Of a stretch of DNA of 64,000 nucleotides, positions 48,481 to 59,960 are shown piece after piece. Each line of letters starts with the position of its first letter. The stretch's first letter is position 1. The translations under genes were made by a program, and so were the position numbers. A model generated the notes under the pieces. The model saw only the letters and a program-made list of their open reading frames with translations, was not told where the DNA came from and ran no database searches. The DNA is from Escherichia phage Mt1B1_P17. The stretch lies in sequence record NC_052662.1. One strand, written 5' to 3'.

Positions 48481-50259
48481 GTGTCGCACATTATAACTAA
48501 ATATGGATTTGATGTTGATCTTAGCAAGGAAGGGCATACAGGTTGTCCGCGCTGCATGAAAAATGGCAAGGATCGCTCTCGTAATAACCTGATGGTTTAT
48601 GGATTAGATTCTAATGGAGAGCATAAAGGTGCTAAGTGCTTTGCGTGTGAATACACTATTCCTAGCGTAGAATGGTTACGAGAAAATGGTGAAGTTTTAG
48701 AAGAAGAGGAGGAGATTGTGGGTTCGGAATTTAATAAACAGATTCATCGTAAAATTGTTCAAGAAACATCAACCAACCCACGTGGTTATCGAGGCATTAA
48801 AGAAAAAGTTTCATCTTTCTATGGTGTTCGTTATGAATACCGTCAGGAAGGGGATCAGATGGTAGTAGAAAGTTGTTTATATCCGACTACTATCGGTAAA
48901 GAATTGGTTGGTTTTAAGCGTCGTATTCATCCTAAAGATTTCAGTAAACCTATTGGTCAAGTAGGTAAAGATGTAGATCTTTTTGGACAAATTCGTTTTG
49001 CAGACCGTTCTCATACTGTGGTAATTACAGGTGGTGAACACGATGCTCTGGCAGCTTATCAAATGCTATCTGAAAACTTGGACAACAAGTATGAACTTCC
49101 AGCAGTAGTTAGTGGCACAACTGGTGAAACCAGTATGTATAAACAAGTTCAGGCACAATATCCTTTCTTTGAAAAATTTAAGAAGATTATTGTTTGCATG
49201 GATAATGATAAAGCAGGTAATGAGGCATTTGAAAATATTGTTAAGGTGCTGCCTCGTAACAAAGTCTACCGTATGCAGATGGATCTTAAGGATGCCAATC
49301 AGTATCTGGAAGAAGGTCGTGCAAAAGATTTCGTAAAAGCTTTTTGGAGTGCTCGTCTATACACCCCAGCAGGTGTTTATGCTTCTAATGTCTTGTATGA
49401 AGCTGCATTAGAATGCTTGGAATCCAAGATGATTACCTTGCCTCCTTTTATGCGTGTAGCTGCAAACATGCTGGGTGGTGGTTTAGTAGAGGAAGAGATT
49501 ACAGTCATCCTGGCAAAGACCAGTATCGGTAAAACTTTGATGGTGAACGAGATCACCAAACATATTATTGTTGCGCACCCAGAACATACCCTAGGTATCC
49601 TGTCCTTGGAAGCAACTTATAAGAAATATTCTCGTAACCTGTTGTCCTCGTTCCTGCATATTCCTCTACACAGGAAAACACCGGAAGAGAAATTTCAAAT
49701 CTTGGAAGAGAATAAAGAAAAAATCCTAGATTTTTACGAAAGAGAAGATGGATCACCACGTTTTTATGTATGTGATGATCGTGGAGCAGATGTGGAGTCT
49801 ATCAAAGAAAAAGTTTTGGAGATGATCATCTATTTTGGAGTAACAATTCTTGTTATCGACCCTTATTCTGATTTGCTTTCTGGTATGGATGTTCAAGCCC
49901 AAGAAGAGTTAGCAACATGGTTGAAGCGCATTATGAAAGAGTATGCTATAACTATTATCGTCATCTCACACGTTAAGAAATCGGCTAATGGTGGCAATGA
50001 ACACTTAACAGAGGACGATGCAATGGGTAGTAGTTTCTTGGCTAAAGGTGCTGGTATTACCTTGGCTTTGGAACGAGATAAAGCCGCTGAAGACCCTGTA
50101 GAACGCAATACGACTCATTGCTTTATCCTAAAAAACCGTGAGTTCTCGGAAACTGGTCCGGCAGGGCAGTTTTACTATGACATTAGAACTGCAACTCTGC
50201 ATGACAAAGAGCAGTATTTCAACAATCCTGCTAATTTGCCTACGGATAGCAACTATTAA
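48481..50259 (+). CDS. bifunctional DNA primase-helicase (T7 gp4-like)
   Basis: N-terminal zinc ribbon CPRC...CFAC, TOPRIM-like acidic motifs (GGEHD, CMDNDKAG), P-loop AKTSIGKT; GTG start. Confidence 0.8.
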   Translation: MSHIITKYGFDVDLSKEGHTGCPRCMKNGKDRSRNNLMVYGLDSNGEHKGAKCFACEYTIPSVEWLRENGEVLEEEEEIVGSEFNKQIHRKIVQETSTNPRGYRGIKEKVSSFYGVRYEYRQEGDQMVVESCLYPTTIGKELVGFKRRIHPKDFSKPIGQVGKDVDLFGQIRFADRSHTVVITGGEHDALAAYQMLSENLDNKYELPAVVSGTTGETSMYKQVQAQYPFFEKFKKIIVCMDNDKAGNEAFENIVKVLPRNKVYRMQMDLKDANQYLEEGRAKDFVKAFWSARLYTPAGVYASNVLYEAALECLESKMITLPPFMRVAANMLGGGLVEEEITVILAKTSIGKTLMVNEITKHIIVAHPEHTLGILSLEATYKKYSRNLLSSFLHIPLHRKTPEEKFQILEENKEKILDFYEREDGSPRFYVCDDRGADVESIKEKVLEMIIYFGVTILVIDPYSDLLSGMDVQAQEELATWLKRIMKEYAITIIVISHVKKSANGGNEHLTEDDAMGSSFLAKGAGITLALERDKAAEDPVERNTTHCFILKNREFSETGPAGQFYYDIRTATLHDKEQYFNNPANLPTDSNY

Positions 50260-54602: not shown

Positions 54603-54821
54603 ATGCGTAAATTAGTGAGCTTTAATGTTTCAATTCTTGTTGATGAACAAAATGAAGATGTTATTAAAGGTCTTGCAAATAAGATTGCAGGTGGAATGAC
54701 GGAAGCTGAAGTGTGGGAAGAATGTGCTCGACTTTATGAGGAAGGTGTTATTGAGGTCTTGGGGGATGAGATTAATATGGACGATGTTGTAAAAGTAACT
54801 GTGGAGCGTATCAATGACTAA
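54603..54821 (+). CDS. hypothetical acidic protein (72 aa)
   Basis: ORF; RBS AAGGAGAAAA. Confidence 0.4.
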   Translation: MRKLVSFNVSILVDEQNEDVIKGLANKIAGGMTEAEVWEECARLYEEGVIEVLGDEINMDDVVKVTVERIND

Positions 54822-55407
54822 ATCAAAACAAATCAATATTGCCAAAGAAATTCTTACCGTATTAAAGATCGCTGATCCTAATTCTGTCTTGGCTGGCGGT
54901 GCTGTTCGTGATTGGCGTATTCTTGATATTGCTGGACGTGATCTGGATTTCTATACATCCCTTCCTGCACATCGGACTGAAGAACAAATACAAGGATTAA
55001 TTGCATCTGCTTTAATGGGAACCAATATTCGTAAACTAGGAAACAAAGAGGCTTCTGACAATTATGAAGGTGTTACTGGTCTTAAACACGTTTTTGAGTT
55101 TGAACGTGATGGTCAGCTTTGCAACCTTATGATTATGGAACCAAGCGTAATGACAACCTTTCTAAATGAGTTCGATCTGTCCATCTGCCAGGCTGCATTT
55201 GATGGGAAGGACTGTTATTATTCTAAAGATTTTGAAACAACCTTGGAAACAGGGATCTGCTTCTTGCACAAAGATGTTAGAGAAGATGCCAAACATGTTA
55301 TTAAAATTGCTACACGTTTTCCATATCTTCGTTTTGTGAAAGAGGTTAAGGTTCCACGTCCACCTCAAGTAGATACCAGATTGGAAGAAGATGATATTCC
55401 TTGGTAA
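54814..55407 (+). CDS. minimal nucleotidyltransferase (Pol-beta superfamily; CCA-adding/poly(A)-polymerase-like head)
   Basis: GGAVRD followed by DLD motif (LAGGAVRDWRILDIAGRDLDFYT). Confidence 0.45.
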   Translation: MTKSKQINIAKEILTVLKIADPNSVLAGGAVRDWRILDIAGRDLDFYTSLPAHRTEEQIQGLIASALMGTNIRKLGNKEASDNYEGVTGLKHVFEFERDGQLCNLMIMEPSVMTTFLNEFDLSICQAAFDGKDCYYSKDFETTLETGICFLHKDVREDAKHVIKIATRFPYLRFVKEVKVPRPPQVDTRLEEDDIPW

Positions 55408-55861: not shown

Positions 55862-56794
55862 ATGTCCGTAATTAATACTGAAACTGATCGTAAAGGCAAA
55901 ACCGTAACTTATGCAACTGGTATCGTAGACTACGTTAAACTGGATAAATTCGCTGAACCTAAAACTTTTCATTGGGAAGGAAAAACGATTGTTTCAACTC
56001 ACCGAGCTTCTCTTGTTCTGAAAGAGAAAGGTGCTAAACCAGATGAGAAAGGTGTTTGGATTTCTCTTGGTGACATTGAACTGAAAGAAGGTTATGAAAA
56101 CCTGCAAGTCAAAGAAGGTGATAATTGGATCACTATTGAAAAAGGTGTAGAAGTAAGTATTGATATTGATCGCGTTGATAATAAAGGCGGTAAAACTTAC
56201 TACAATACTAAAAAATCTCGTATTACAGTATTGTCTACCGATGGTGTTCAGAAGTCTAACAAATCTTCTGGCAATAAAGGTTCCAACGATGCTGCTCCTA
56301 AGCAGTCCTATAAAAAACGTGATACCGTAGGCCTGGAAACTGGTCACGCAGTAAATGGTGCACTGGAACTGATTCGTAATGGTGTTAAAGGCGATGCTTT
56401 CGATATCGCTGGGGTTGTTCAATCTGCAACTGTCACACTGAAATCGGAAATTGCTGAATCTCGTGGCGTTGATATTAATGATTATGATCTTGGGGCGTCT
56501 GTTGGTCACGCTATCCTCAATGCTTGTAAAGACCATACCATTAAGACTGTATCTGTAGAAGATTTGATTGACTCTGCTCGTAAAGTTCTAGCTTTGTCTG
56601 ATAAAGTTGCTGCTGCCATTCGTGGTTCCGTAGAACAACCTAAGAAAGAAGAGAAGAAAGAAGTTAAAAAGCCTGAACCACAACCAGAACCAACTCCAAG
56701 TAATCAAGAAGAACCTCCAATGGACTTCGATGATGATATTCCATTTGCCCCTATTGGACTGCAATATGGTCGAAACTTCCTGCATTGCTTCTAA
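55862..56794 (+). CDS. single-stranded DNA-binding protein with E. coli SSB-like acidic tail motif
   Basis: Gly/Ser-rich linker then ...EEPPMDFDDDIPF, followed by 15 further codons before the stop. Confidence 0.5.
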   Translation: MSVINTETDRKGKTVTYATGIVDYVKLDKFAEPKTFHWEGKTIVSTHRASLVLKEKGAKPDEKGVWISLGDIELKEGYENLQVKEGDNWITIEKGVEVSIDIDRVDNKGGKTYYNTKKSRITVLSTDGVQKSNKSSGNKGSNDAAPKQSYKKRDTVGLETGHAVNGALELIRNGVKGDAFDIAGVVQSATVTLKSEIAESRGVDINDYDLGASVGHAILNACKDHTIKTVSVEDLIDSARKVLALSDKVAAAIRGSVEQPKKEEKKEVKKPEPQPEPTPSNQEEPPMDFDDDIPFAPIGLQYGRNFLHCF

Positions 56795-57260
56795 GGTTTG
56801 TTTCAAGTGCGGGGTGTTAAAGCCCCTCACTGAATTTTACAAACATAAAGCTATGGCTGACGGTCACGTCAATAAATGCAAAGAATGTAATAAGAAAGAT
56901 GTTAAACAGAATCGTAAAGATAAATCTGAATATTACAAAGAGTATGATAAAAACAGAGATCAGACCCCAGAGCGCAAAGCTTTAAAAGAGGCTTACGCAA
57001 AAGGGAAAGGTAAAGATAAGGCTAATGAAGCTAAGAAACGTTACATCGAAAAGAATCCGAAAAAACGTTCTGCTCATATAGCTGTAGGTAACGCACTACG
57101 AGATGGAAAGTTAATAAAACAACCTTGCCAAGTGTGTGGGTCTGTTGATGTTCATGCTCATCATTGTGATTATGATAAACCGTTAGATGTTCTATGGCTG
57201 TGTCCTCTGCACCATGAAGCTTGGCATCAAGAACATGGGGAAGGGTTGAACGCTGAATAA
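56766..57260 (+). CDS. HNH homing-endonuclease-like protein
   Basis: N-terminal Cys cluster CFKCG...CKEC and C-terminal HNH motif VHAHHCDYDKPLDVLWLCPLHH; start uncertain (56730 or 56766), overlaps the SSB 3' end. Confidence 0.6.
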   Translation: MVETSCIASKVCFKCGVLKPLTEFYKHKAMADGHVNKCKECNKKDVKQNRKDKSEYYKEYDKNRDQTPERKALKEAYAKGKGKDKANEAKKRYIEKNPKKRSAHIAVGNALRDGKLIKQPCQVCGSVDVHAHHCDYDKPLDVLWLCPLHHEAWHQEHGEGLNAE

Positions 57261-57265
57261 AAGAA

Positions 57266-57290
57266 AGGAGCCAAATGGCTCCTTTTCTTA
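57266..57290. terminator. bidirectional terminator AGGAGCC-AAAT-GGCTCCT between convergent genes
   Basis: Perfect 7-bp stem with T-rich runs on both strands. Confidence 0.6.
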
Positions 57291-59960
57291 TTTATAACCC
57301 GAAGGAATATTGTTATAATCAGAAAGTTTTGTGCAATACCTGAATAGGTAACTATTAGCTACTCCACCTAATGTATTTGTTAATGTTGTTCCTGTTCCTG
57401 TAAGATTTGTGCATCCACTAAAGAAAGAAGATAATGCTCCACGTTTACCACAAACAGTTAACCCTGGGTTGTCATTAAAGATTTTATTAAAATCTGTAAG
57501 TGCTAAACAACCTTGGAATGTAGCTGTTAAAGAGGTCACTTTCGTTGGAATATTATCAAACATTCCTGCTGGAACTTCTGCAAGAGAGGTGCAATCTTTA
57601 AAGGTGTAAGAATATCTTGTAACTTTTGATAGATTCTTAAATAAATCTGAAGGAATAGATGTTAAAGATGTACAACCTTCAAACGTGCTTGACATTGTTG
57701 TCATTGAAGGAAATAAAGTATCACTGAATAATCCTTCAGGGATAGCTGTCAAACTTGTGCAGCCAGAGAAGATACCACTTATAGATGTTCCGGTGTAAGA
57801 TGTGTTACTAAAACAATCAGAAGTTATTCGTCTTAAGTTAGCACAACCTTTTAAGAATTGTGAGGCTGGACTTGTAGAATAACCAATTCTGTTGCCGCCC
57901 CATAATTCTAAAAGATCTGGATTTGCTTCCATAGACACATCAACACTATTCACTACTGAAGCACTTGCAAATTCAATAGCCAGTCTATATTCTCCTGCTG
58001 GATAACTATCCACTGTAGAGAAAGCTTTATTTCTAAATATTACTTTATTTGAAGGTATTACAACGTCATCCACCTTAACTACAAAGTTAGCTGGTGTGAC
58101 AGTACCCGATAAAATTGGGAACGTAATTGCCCCATCTGCCGAGTGGTTGAAATATCCGTTTAGAACCGTTAAACTACTACTCGGAGATGGAGCTAACTCC
58201 TTTCCCGCAACAGCATTCACCGTTAAATAAGAACTATCGGAAGCGGTAACAACACCTTGATACGTAGCTGTGCAACCAATCCTACAACCACCATCACCAA
58301 CACCAGTTATTACACCAGTTGTAGGATCTACTGTAGCAACACTAGGATCTGTAGTTGTATATTCAACAACCATGCCAGGTAAGCTTGCTGCCCCTGTTGG
58401 CGTTATTTCTGCTACCATTGTTTGTGTTGTTCCTACATCCATCGCAGATAAGCTAGGAGTGTAAACGCTCAATGTTGAAGCATATCCTCCAGAGGTATCT
58501 GATAAAGTTGTTCCTTCAGCGTTTAAGGCTGTCATACCTGCATCAAAACCACCTTCTGCATGGAAAGTCATTAAACCAGTAGATGATATTGTCATGTTTG
58601 CAGGGGCAGAAGAAGTGTATTTAATATTGAAAAGTTTACCTCCTTCTGGGCTAACAGAATGTGTCAACTGTTTAGTTCCACCTACAATACAAATTCCTAA
58701 AGAATCTGTAGTTAAGCCAGTTGCCAGAATATCACCCGTAATCACGGAGCTTGCTATTGGTGTGAATTTATTATAGTTTAGACCACTATTGAACAGATAA
58801 GAGGCTTTCCCATCTTTCCAAATACCGGAATAATACATATCTCCATTATAAACGAAAAAGGTTCCTTGATAACCTAATTGGTTAGTAATATCCATATTCA
58901 GCGTATGAACGCTTGTGAGCTTGTTTATATCCCAGGAACCCACTCCTTCAGGTTTAACTGGTTTTCCCACTTGGAGTGGATCTCCGCTCGCAGAATCATA
59001 CCCCAAACCTAAGTTTGCAGTATAGTTCTTACCAATAGCCCACAAGGAATTATTGATCCCAACGAAAAAAGAGTGGCGGCTTGGTGGAAATTTCCATGTT
59101 GAGAAACCTGCTGCAAAGGTATCCAGTTTAGTGTAGGTTGTTTCTGTATTAGACCTGACATATAAGTAGTTTACCGTGCCCGTACCACCGGAGGTATCTC
59201 CTACAACTATTGTCTGGGAAACTGTATTGATGTAATCTTTGACATACACTGTTTCAGTAGTGGATATCGTGGCATTGACAAAAGCGGTTGTTGTGTTATT
59301 ATTACCTGCTAAACCTTTACTGGCTCCACAAACACGCAAGGTTCCCACATTGTTGACATAAGAGCATTGGTTGTAACCTGCATCAAAAGCAATTGCTGCA
59401 CTTGTTATCTGACGAGGAGTAGAAACCTCGTTAGTAGTACTTGCACCTAAACTACCTACTGTGTTTTGACCTGATCCATAAAGAACACCACTATTCATTA
59501 ACCAGAGAGTGTTGTTATATCCTCCCTTAACCTCTTTAAGATTGGCTAAAGAGATAGTCCCTGTTATTACAGATGGAAAGCTGGTCCAAGTAGTTACACA
59601 TGCGTCCGTACCACCTGCTGCTATAGATCCTACCAATCCTGCTGTCAATCCTGAATATTGCCATCCCCCACTGTTAGTTTTAATAACAAAACAACGATCT
59701 GCGGTAAACACATCCGCTACTACAGTAGAAGCTAAGTGGAAATTATTGAATCGTGCACTACGAGTTCCATCTGCAATCTCACCAAAAAGGTTTGCGCCTT
59801 GAGTAAACAATCTACCATCATTAAGCAAAATTGCTAAACTGCTGTTAGAATTACCAGCATTATCTGGGTAATCTAAAGTGATTACTTTTTTAACAATACC
59901 TGCTGGCAGAGGAACGACACCAGTGCTGGTCATAATAGTAAATATTGGAATTGGAAACAT
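57288..59960 (-). CDS. tail fibre / receptor-binding protein with C-terminal leucine-rich-repeat-like (BspA-type) module
   Basis: 890 aa, G/T/S/N-rich; C-terminal repeats of F.GCTSLT.IP..LF about every 25 aa; RBS GGAGGG. Confidence 0.55.
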   Translation of the reverse strand: MFPIPIFTIMTSTGVVPLPAGIVKKVITLDYPDNAGNSNSSLAILLNDGRLFTQGANLFGEIADGTRSARFNNFHLASTVVADVFTADRCFVIKTNSGGWQYSGLTAGLVGSIAAGGTDACVTTWTSFPSVITGTISLANLKEVKGGYNNTLWLMNSGVLYGSGQNTVGSLGASTTNEVSTPRQITSAAIAFDAGYNQCSYVNNVGTLRVCGASKGLAGNNNTTTAFVNATISTTETVYVKDYINTVSQTIVVGDTSGGTGTVNYLYVRSNTETTYTKLDTFAAGFSTWKFPPSRHSFFVGINNSLWAIGKNYTANLGLGYDSASGDPLQVGKPVKPEGVGSWDINKLTSVHTLNMDITNQLGYQGTFFVYNGDMYYSGIWKDGKASYLFNSGLNYNKFTPIASSVITGDILATGLTTDSLGICIVGGTKQLTHSVSPEGGKLFNIKYTSSAPANMTISSTGLMTFHAEGGFDAGMTALNAEGTTLSDTSGGYASTLSVYTPSLSAMDVGTTQTMVAEITPTGAASLPGMVVEYTTTDPSVATVDPTTGVITGVGDGGCRIGCTATYQGVVTASDSSYLTVNAVAGKELAPSPSSSLTVLNGYFNHSADGAITFPILSGTVTPANFVVKVDDVVIPSNKVIFRNKAFSTVDSYPAGEYRLAIEFASASVVNSVDVSMEANPDLLELWGGNRIGYSTSPASQFLKGCANLRRITSDCFSNTSYTGTSISGIFSGCTSLTAIPEGLFSDTLFPSMTTMSSTFEGCTSLTSIPSDLFKNLSKVTRYSYTFKDCTSLAEVPAGMFDNIPTKVTSLTATFQGCLALTDFNKIFNDNPGLTVCGKRGALSSFFSGCTNLTGTGTTLTNTLGGVANSYLFRYCTKLSDYNNIPSGYK

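Follow-up and report, generated by a model that had tools for sequence, protein, structure and literature searches.

The window analyzed here is the full 64,000-nucleotide stretch taken from Escherichia phage Mt1B1_P17 (NC_052662.1). Its region belongs to Phapecoctavirus (phAPEC8-like myoviruses, Stephanstirmvirinae), with genome matches that are mostly 95-99 % identical. DNA polymerase is followed there by small open reading frames (ORFs), a nucleotidyltransferase gene, an ORF of 130 amino acids (aa), a gene for an SSB-like protein (SSB, a protein that binds single-stranded DNA) and a convergent tail-protein gene. Our subject is the 3' end of the SSB-like gene (ssb), where codons for a copy of the E. 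coli SSB C-terminal tip are followed by 15 further codons that overlap the start of an HNH endonuclease gene (Table 1).

The SSB-like protein ends ...NQEEPPMDFDDDIPF-APIGLQYGRNFLHCF-TAA or, with a longer stretch before the extension, ...EEPPMDFDDDIPF-APIGLQYGRNFLHCF-TAA. At all 12 positions the tip, EPPMDFDDDIPF, agrees with the end of E. coli SSB (PDB 1EQQ chain A, 167-178), where the Phe closes the chain. This bears out an annotation made by a model from the letters alone (the sequence-only reading), which had described an internal E. coli SSB-like tip followed by 15 residues. One feature of an SSB C-terminus (SSB-Ct), an acidic D-D-D-I-P-F after a disordered linker, is present in the window protein, but the other, a free alpha-carboxyl on the terminal Phe, is absent, as 15 in-frame codons precede the TAA. 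Because the canonical pockets for the tip anchor the alpha-carboxyl of the terminal Phe and require it to be free (PMC10164576), the usual docking of the extended tip is not expected.

An AlphaFold model (AF2; 50 homologues) divides the SSB-like protein into an OB-like beta domain (aa 1-125; predicted local distance difference test, pLDDT, 80-90), a domain of four helices (aa 156-253) and a tail predicted as disordered (aa 254-310), with pLDDT below 50 in the linker. Its top local Foldseek matches include OB domains (2k75, probability 1.00; Stn1; TEBP-alpha; D. radiodurans SSB), all weak and with E above 0.01. We found no match to the Pfam SSB model (PF00436) at E of 0.1 or below, the NCBIfam SSB model matches the tail only (aa 255-295), and the best family, phrog_4477, is labelled 'unknown function'. 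The label 'SSB-like' is reasonable because of the architecture (OB-like beta domain, helical domain, disordered linker, acidic tip) and the annotation of relatives; membership of the classical SSB family is unsupported by Pfam.

The HNH ORF lies in the +1 frame, which no stop interrupts between 56730 and 57260. The start that is conserved is the ATG at 56766 (MVETSCIASKVCFKCG...), inside the extension codons, where the sequence-only reading had looked for it. In an alignment of 40 relatives the conserved core of the HNH protein starts at Lys-10, whose invariant codon (56793..56795) overlaps the SSB stop codon. Starts at ATG 56730 or 56733 were rejected as not conserved, and so was the internal Met used in the ZCKP1 annotation, which would remove the first CxxC pair. 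A frameshift fusion of SSB and HNH was also rejected: the +1 frame upstream of the ATG is open in the window but closed by stops in ESh4/morffagbaw, GAP31 and KE23. The remark that the gene has no clear ribosome-binding site was fair, the only Shine-Dalgarno signal 5' of the ATG being a weak GGA; we rejected this Gly codon as a selected signal because alleles with and without HNH show no consistent difference there.

Residues C12, C15, C38, C41, C121, C124, H132, H133, D135, C146, H150 and H154 are invariant in 40 members of the HNH family. The predicted Cys cluster and HNH motif are both present: two CxxC pairs (C12/C15 and C38/C41) accompany a His-His...Asp...His metal/catalytic motif with flanking zinc-binding Cys and His residues. 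The AF2 model (pLDDT 95) places strands at residues 130-133 and 142-145 and a helix at 147-157. The protein matches phrog_2340, 'endonuclease', at 9e-49 and endonuclease VII/HNH PHROG families at 1e-9 to 3e-6. Public records misname the gene 'baseplate wedge protein gp25' in ZCKP1 (L004, 3954-4361) and GAP31 (L249, 1563-2060), and the internal start in the ZCKP1 record costs the protein its first CxxC pair; these annotation errors are propagating. At a further locus (L251, 2928-3542), the gene 3' of the extension shares its N-terminal zinc-ribbon with the HNH family (63 % identity over 35 aa) but not its C-terminal domain, which suggests that domains may be swapped on a shared DNA-recognition module.

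Table 1. Features at the 3' end of ssb and its surroundings (window coordinates)
Feature	Position	Strand	Remarks
SSB-like gene, 310 aa, phrog_4477 family	55862..56794	+	name given to relatives: single-stranded DNA-binding protein
Host-mimicking SSB tip EPPMDFDDDIPF, aa 284-295, internal and not C-terminal	56711..56746	+	12/12 against the end of E. coli SSB
Post-tip extension of 15 codons, APIGLQYGRNFLHCF (56747..56791), and TAA stop (56792..56794)	56747..56794	+	class-1 motif (see text)
Free-standing HNH (beta-beta-alpha-Me) endonuclease gene, 164 aa	56766..57260	+	ATG within the Q-Y-G codons of the extension
Dual-coding overlap of 29 nt: last 9 SSB codons and stop; in the +1 frame, non-conserved HNH leader MVETSCIAS	56766..56794	+	
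HNH catalytic/zinc motif, C121-x2-C124 ... HH-x-D ... C146-x3-H150-x3-H154	57126..57227	+	invariant columns and local Foldseek matches
Bidirectional intrinsic terminator closing the ssb-HNH unit	57263..57286	.	same hairpin directly 3' of ssb in HNH-free relatives
Convergent tail(-fiber) protein gene; downstream boundary of the variable site	57288..59960	-	

Four allelic states occupy the ssb 3' end in Phapecoctavirus, in genomes whose identity is mostly 97-99 %. In the first, found by the comparison with HNH-free relatives that the sequence-only reading had proposed, ESCO5 and ABPW7 encode a 295-aa SSB ending DDDIPF-TGA, followed by a short spacer and the same terminator. The second joins the extension to a window-type HNH gene (the window, ZCKP1, nieznany and the approximately 80 % identical PsgM04F). 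In the third (vB_Ec-G1, DE16 and several others) the extension precedes an HNH gene whose interior is deleted, so that its first 15 codons run on into its last few. The fourth, in nepoznato, AV125 and phiWec188/190, has a stop right after the Phe and a sister HNH gene, which starts at a TTG overlapping the SSB stop behind a tip that reads DDNIPF or DEDIPF; the 3' half of the nepoznato sister gene is identical to the window HNH. Among the sampled Phapecoctavirus genomes the extension is confined to alleles with the window-type HNH or its remnant. Single-nucleotide polymorphisms (SNPs) form a mosaic across the ssb body, and only from the Phe codon onward do the alleles diverge; a co-conversion tract in the ssb body was rejected, as no allele-specific SNP block was seen there. 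Presence/absence polymorphism together with decayed copies at one site is one mark of a homing gene, and the proposal that a homing endonuclease inserted at this exact site gains support from it.

These alleles also bear on two other explanations. An assembly or frameshift error, the other option in the sequence-only reading, has nothing in its favor except the unusual internal tip. It is excluded because an identical tail recurs in 10 or more independent GenBank phages (ZCKP1, nieznany, vB_Ec-G1, DE16 and PsgM04F all carry it) and in a protein cluster, formed at 90 %, with 110 member sequences, and diverged copies hold the frame through synonymous changes; we give it practically no weight. 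Alternatively, the HNH nuclease could have been domesticated to act together with SSB, in replication or recombination for instance, and not be a selfish homing element. Its gene consistently lies beside ssb, often in erf-ssb recombination modules, and appears to be translationally coupled to it. Yet it is missing from most genomes of the genus, persists as an internally deleted copy in several viable phages and has two alternative alleles at the same site, and distant members of the family adjoin exonuclease or polA genes. We consider domestication improbable.

The extension is not limited to HNH loci. VEcB, from a sister genus, carries the identical 15 residues and no HNH gene, with 6 synonymous and 0 non-synonymous changes from the window in the 15 codons. 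HNH-free variants occur in the PVP-SE1 SSB, the KpS8 helicase, Vibrio K242, epsilon34 and mEpX2 (for example APVTLPFPRHAIHAI). The class-1 motif, A-P-[IV]-[GT]-L-[QPM]-[YF]-[PG]-x-[HN]-x-[IL]-[HY]-[AC]-[ILF], is present on more than 100 IMG/VR and prophage SSBs that have no HNH gene nearby. A scan of IMG/VR for DDDIPF-AP gave at least 120 loci; among the matches listed, approximately half belong to this 15-residue class and approximately a third to a 9-residue class (APLHHLAGA), and an HNH relative lies downstream at 1 of the 120 listed. The 15-residue class was found in 28 bacterial species, all Gammaproteobacteria but for a Parasphingorhabdus metagenome-assembled genome and a Chryseobacterium assembly, and an epsilon34-type tail in 169 of 5426 complete E. 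coli genomes. Its scaffolds comprise PF00436 SSBs, phrog_4477 SSB-like proteins, other non-Pfam scaffolds and a DnaB_C helicase. Within the phrog_4477 family the extension is patchy, being present in approximately 25 of 120 clusters.

A second post-tip tail, AP[LHM]HHL[AN]G[AVGT] (class 2, 9 aa), occurs on PF00436 SSBs (IMG/VR loci L015-L134, for example L106 and L090), in many cases with a YqaJ-like exonuclease gene upstream, and purifying selection acts on it too, with a ratio of non-synonymous to synonymous change (pN/pS) of 0.38. Class-1 extensions in prophage SSBs often adjoin erf. In Mydovirus, the primase-helicase tails of KB57 (L258) and KpS8 (L135) are 100 % identical up to ...DDDTPF; thereafter KpS8 has the 15-residue extension, and in KB57 the frame stops and an unrelated gene of 155 aa comes next.

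For codons 3-15 of the class-1 extension, pN/pS was 0.40 in the SSB frame versus 1.34 and 1.60 in the other frames, as crude pairwise counts in which pS is saturated. Could the 15 residues nonetheless be a neutral read-through scar of HNH insertion, without function for phage or element? The strict linkage of extension and HNH within the genus, the growth of close relatives lacking the extension on the same K-12 host and the predicted disorder of the tail would all fit a scar. The selection measured in frame and the silent changes between the window and VEcB run against it, as do the conservation of the motif in very distant HNH-free phages and its presence on five or more unrelated scaffolds, and we regard a scar as very improbable. 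The extension is, judging by this conservation, a member of a widespread phage tail module under purifying selection.

The sequence-only reading had offered, as one possibility, that an inserted homing endonuclease displaced the ssb stop, and had named as contrary evidence the same extension in related phages without the HNH gene. Such phages exist: VEcB has the same peptide, and PVP-SE1, K242, epsilon34, mEpX2 and the more than 100 SSBs have variants of it. Since the motif is found on HNH-free SSBs, the extra residues appear to be a conserved, selected module fused to an HNH lineage, and accidental read-through has to be given up; the outline of an insertion still stands. The pairing of extension and HNH across lineages means that the idea of an insertion that displaced the stop captures something real.

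That pairing was examined in the neighborhoods of the HNH family, which has at least 989 homologues. Of the best 80 IMG/VR loci, 74 reached far enough upstream to be read, and in 63 of these 74 the ORF 5' of the HNH relative ends in an acidic ...D[IVL]PF plus 0-1 residue. The same arrangement of tip and then HNH was present in 5 of 5 sampled GenBank phages (ACG-M12, ESh4/morffagbaw, K54_rec2 and the Vibrio phages 207E29-2 and K63). The family is thus consistently associated with a conserved target gene or sequence, as homing genes are, and the same junction also occurs behind helicase genes. At 33 of the 74 loci (L172-L248) the preceding SSB-type gene ends ...PFN, and at 7 more ...PFS, PFD or PFR; a non-terminal Phe, one residue past the tip, is common beside this HNH family.

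At 12 of the 13 loci that have both extension and HNH, the HNH Lys codon starts 1 nt into the TAA of the extension, and in 10 of those 12 the HNH ATG lies at extension nucleotide 19, within the Q-Y-G/A codons. The 13 loci span the SSB genes of Phapecoctavirus, of a Vequintavirinae phage (ABPH49) and of Drexlerviridae, along with two metagenomic SSBs and the GAP31 and KE23 helicase/primase. Because the junction of stop and Lys codon is fixed in this way, extension and HNH behave as one composite unit. The DnaB-type helicase/primase of GAP31 and KE23 ends DFDNDTPF-APIGLQYANHAIYAL. Helicase tails of GAP31, KE23 and NINP13076 have the extension and an overlapping downstream gene, confirmed as an HNH relative in GAP31 and KE23. 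In the Seunavirus helicase of PVP-SE1 and approximately 11 other listed phages the match stops at ...TPF, with no extension; PVP-SE1, the one read among these approximately 12, has a stop after TPF and no HNH. In two more SSB lineages the extension occurs only where an HNH-family gene follows (P0075 versus P0097, and P0084 versus P0115).

Three further sequences were recorded. In K63 (L140, 1150-1185) the tip codons are repeated just past the stop, ATTCCGTTC TGA TTTG ATTCCGTTC, and 207E29-2 (L139, 1115-1150) carries CCCTTTTAA twice around the stop; both repeats look like a recombination or insertion footprint. For the primase-helicase of PVP-SE1, gene 13 (L259), the annotated coding sequence is a join of two pieces, as though an element intervened within the gene.

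Our favored reading, to which we assign a probability of about 0.72, is that 56747..57260 is a composite mobile 3'-end cassette made of a homing HNH endonuclease and a selected, functional tail peptide. The 15 codons are fused in frame to the Phe codon of the tip, their TAA overlaps the HNH Lys-10 codon, and the HNH ATG lies inside them. HNH would cut HNH-free alleles in or near the tip-coding end, and repair from an HNH-bearing genome would copy the cassette, with crossovers in the short conserved DNA that encodes tip and extension; such crossovers would explain the same composite behind unrelated SSB scaffolds and a primase-helicase. Translation of HNH would be low and coupled to that of ssb, as the ORFs overlap and the Shine-Dalgarno signal is weak.

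Several points weigh against this. The HNH protein has no match to Pfam HNH models, NCBIfam or PDB sequences, and its top Foldseek matches, Hpy99I (probability 0.97, 39 columns), Cap5 and T5 SciA, are local, with E above 0.3. The target site is one that we infer from sequence. Extended and unextended phages alike were isolated on one and the same host, E. coli K-12 MG1655, which makes the peptide dispensable on it. The extension tail has a pLDDT of approximately 50 and no intramolecular docking in the AlphaFold model, an outcome that speaks neither for a binding role nor against one. No HNH remnant accompanies the extension in the clean extension-only alleles (VEcB, PVP-SE1, KpS8), and for that reason the extension may be an older, independent element that HNH targets instead of cargo that HNH carries.

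This last point underlies the alternative that we take most seriously, though we doubt it: the extension would be an older, independent functional tail, the target of HNH and not its cargo, and extension-free Phapecoctavirus alleles would have lost or replaced it by recombination. Besides the clean alleles and the many HNH-free SSBs with the motif, the presence of the extension in outgroup genera favors it, as does the position of HNH behind a helicase that resembles SSB genes in its tail alone. On the other side, approximately 95 of the 120 phrog_4477 clusters lack the extension, and its carriers are scattered. The extension also occurs only with HNH in Phapecoctavirus, in Seunavirus helicases and in the two other lineages, and with an intact target beside it, HNH would be expected to cut its own genome, except where the site straddles the junction.

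Under the composite-cassette reading and this alternative alike the peptide would be functional. Its conservation on many HNH-free phage SSBs argues that it probably has a function, one previously undescribed: we found no description of the post-tip extension or of its tail strings in the searchable literature, a search that did not reach text in figures, and matches to HAIHAI were unrelated text. With the extension in place the tip Phe has no free alpha-carboxyl, and the way in which the tip is read must therefore change. In Mydovirus and Seunavirus, one tail of tip and extension ends both the SSB-like protein and the DnaB-type primase-helicase, which suggests one shared partner.

One proposal for such a function is a cap, in which burying the Phe alpha-carboxyl blocks host SSB-interacting proteins (ExoI/SbcB) or SSB-triggered defense sensing. 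The need of the canonical pockets for a free carboxyl agrees with this, as do the many HNH-linked SSBs that run one residue past the Phe (..IPFN) and the finding that a putatively homologous FDDDIPF SSB-like protein triggers DRT10 and is linked to SbcB (bioRxiv 10.64898/2026.04.29.721553). A cap needs no specific sequence, however, yet all 15 positions show a conserved pattern; primase-helicases with a degenerate 'tip' (DDDTPF, DNDTPF) bear the module as well, and the tip stays perfectly conserved beneath it. A cap and nothing more is in our view unlikely. With low confidence, we prefer a second docking element for a conserved partner, since a cap would not need 15 patterned residues and would be unexpected on helicases with a degenerate tip. 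More broadly, we propose tentatively, and with less belief than disbelief, that the post-tip peptide A-P-[IV]-G-L-Q-Y-x4-[IL]-H-x-[ILF], on SSBs and some primase-helicases of gamma-proteobacterial phages, may turn the host-mimicking tip from a free-carboxyl docking site into a bipartite or masked signal and rewire its host or phage partners or defense sensors, and that HNH, by homing to the coding sequence of a short linear motif and not to any one gene, would move this switch on and off genes in lytic phages.

Three specific candidates for the role of the extension found no support. Docking onto the SSB's own domains is not seen in the model, where the tail is undocked. PIGLQY and PVTLPF resemble the beta-clamp hexapeptide QLxLxL in appearance only, as the Gln is missing and class-2 tails do not fit. 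Erf as a universal partner fails because no erf lies beside the window ssb and some erf-linked SSBs have no extension.

Elsewhere in the window we found no other protein with the tip or the extension, and the primase-helicase-like ORF (48481..50259) ends without a tip. Two genes 5' of ssb, the nucleotidyltransferase/poly(A)-polymerase-like ORF (54814..55407, +) has the C-terminus RLEEDDIPW, an acidic, SSB-tip-like end in which Trp replaces Phe.

These observations call into question the working rule that places an SSB tip at the very C-terminus: a perfect tip is retained beneath a conserved 15- or 9-residue extension in hundreds of SSBs from phages and prophages, and extended-tip SSBs are encoded by approximately 3 % of the complete genomes of E. 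coli. Phage SSB tails have been implicated both in the triggering of DRT10 defense and in annealase/SSB compatibility in recombineering; with its presence in one and absence from another of two near-identical phages, the tail module offers a natural experiment on each. The locus also offers a concrete case of a putative homing endonuclease lineage tied to motif-coding DNA common to unrelated genes, and in the window part of a host protein C-terminus and the endonuclease N-terminus are dual-coded. For annotation, the HNH gene is misnamed or wrongly started in several records, and the SSB is often labelled 'hypothetical'.

Linkage to the tip, together with presence, absence and decay at one site, is the pattern that defines free-standing homing endonuclease genes such as T4 segG. 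In T-even phages these genes include mobE and segG, the latter lying between genes 32 and 59 with the SSB gene 32 as its target, and flanking DNA is co-converted when they are inherited (PMC2988022). Like segG and mobE, the window gene is a promoter-less nuclease cassette beside a conserved replication gene, variably present and with weak translation signals (PMC2988022), and segG likewise neighbors an SSB gene. Unlike the GIY-YIG enzyme SegG, the window nuclease is of the HNH type, and in many phage families its relatives keep to the tip-coding 3' end of SSB-type genes. One HNH lineage, moreover, overlaps 15 extra codons of the host gene at a fixed junction of stop and Lys codon, a second difference from segG; homing is in our case inferred from sequence.

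On the protein side, the window tip resembles the SSB-Ct of E. coli (MDFDDDIPF) in having the identical 12 residues after a Pro/Glu/Lys-rich disordered linker on a scaffold of the single-stranded-DNA-binding type, and differs in that its Phe lacks a free alpha-carboxyl and is followed by 15 residues. In phage T7 the SSB gp2.5 and the primase-helicase gp4 both have acidic C-terminal tails that end in Phe, and both dock to T7 DNA polymerase. The single tail common to the SSB-like protein and the primase-helicase in Mydovirus and Seunavirus recalls this pair; unlike the T7 tails, it has a different sequence, and the post-tip tail is also found on SSBs of temperate phages that encode no polymerase.

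The last six residues of the HK620 SSB (NDYPPF) recruit its cognate annealase Sak4 (PMC5928155), another case of a phage SSB tail tuned to a partner, comparable to class-1 tails near erf and class-2 tails near YqaJ-like exonuclease genes. The HK620 tail, unlike that of the window protein, still ends in Phe, and no erf is seen beside the window ssb. Bas52_0087, an SSB-like protein with an FDDDIPF motif from a Vequintavirinae-type coliphage, triggers DRT10; the paper that describes it mentions neither a post-tip extension nor HNH (bioRxiv 10.64898/2026.04.29.721553). It is like the window protein in its OB fold(s), disordered tail and FDDDIPF, and in size and predicted architecture it comes near the 375-430 aa family members, a likeness drawn from its description. 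Set against known homing endonucleases and known phage mimics of the SSB tip, the new and surprising element at the window locus is a conserved peptide beyond the 'terminal' tip.

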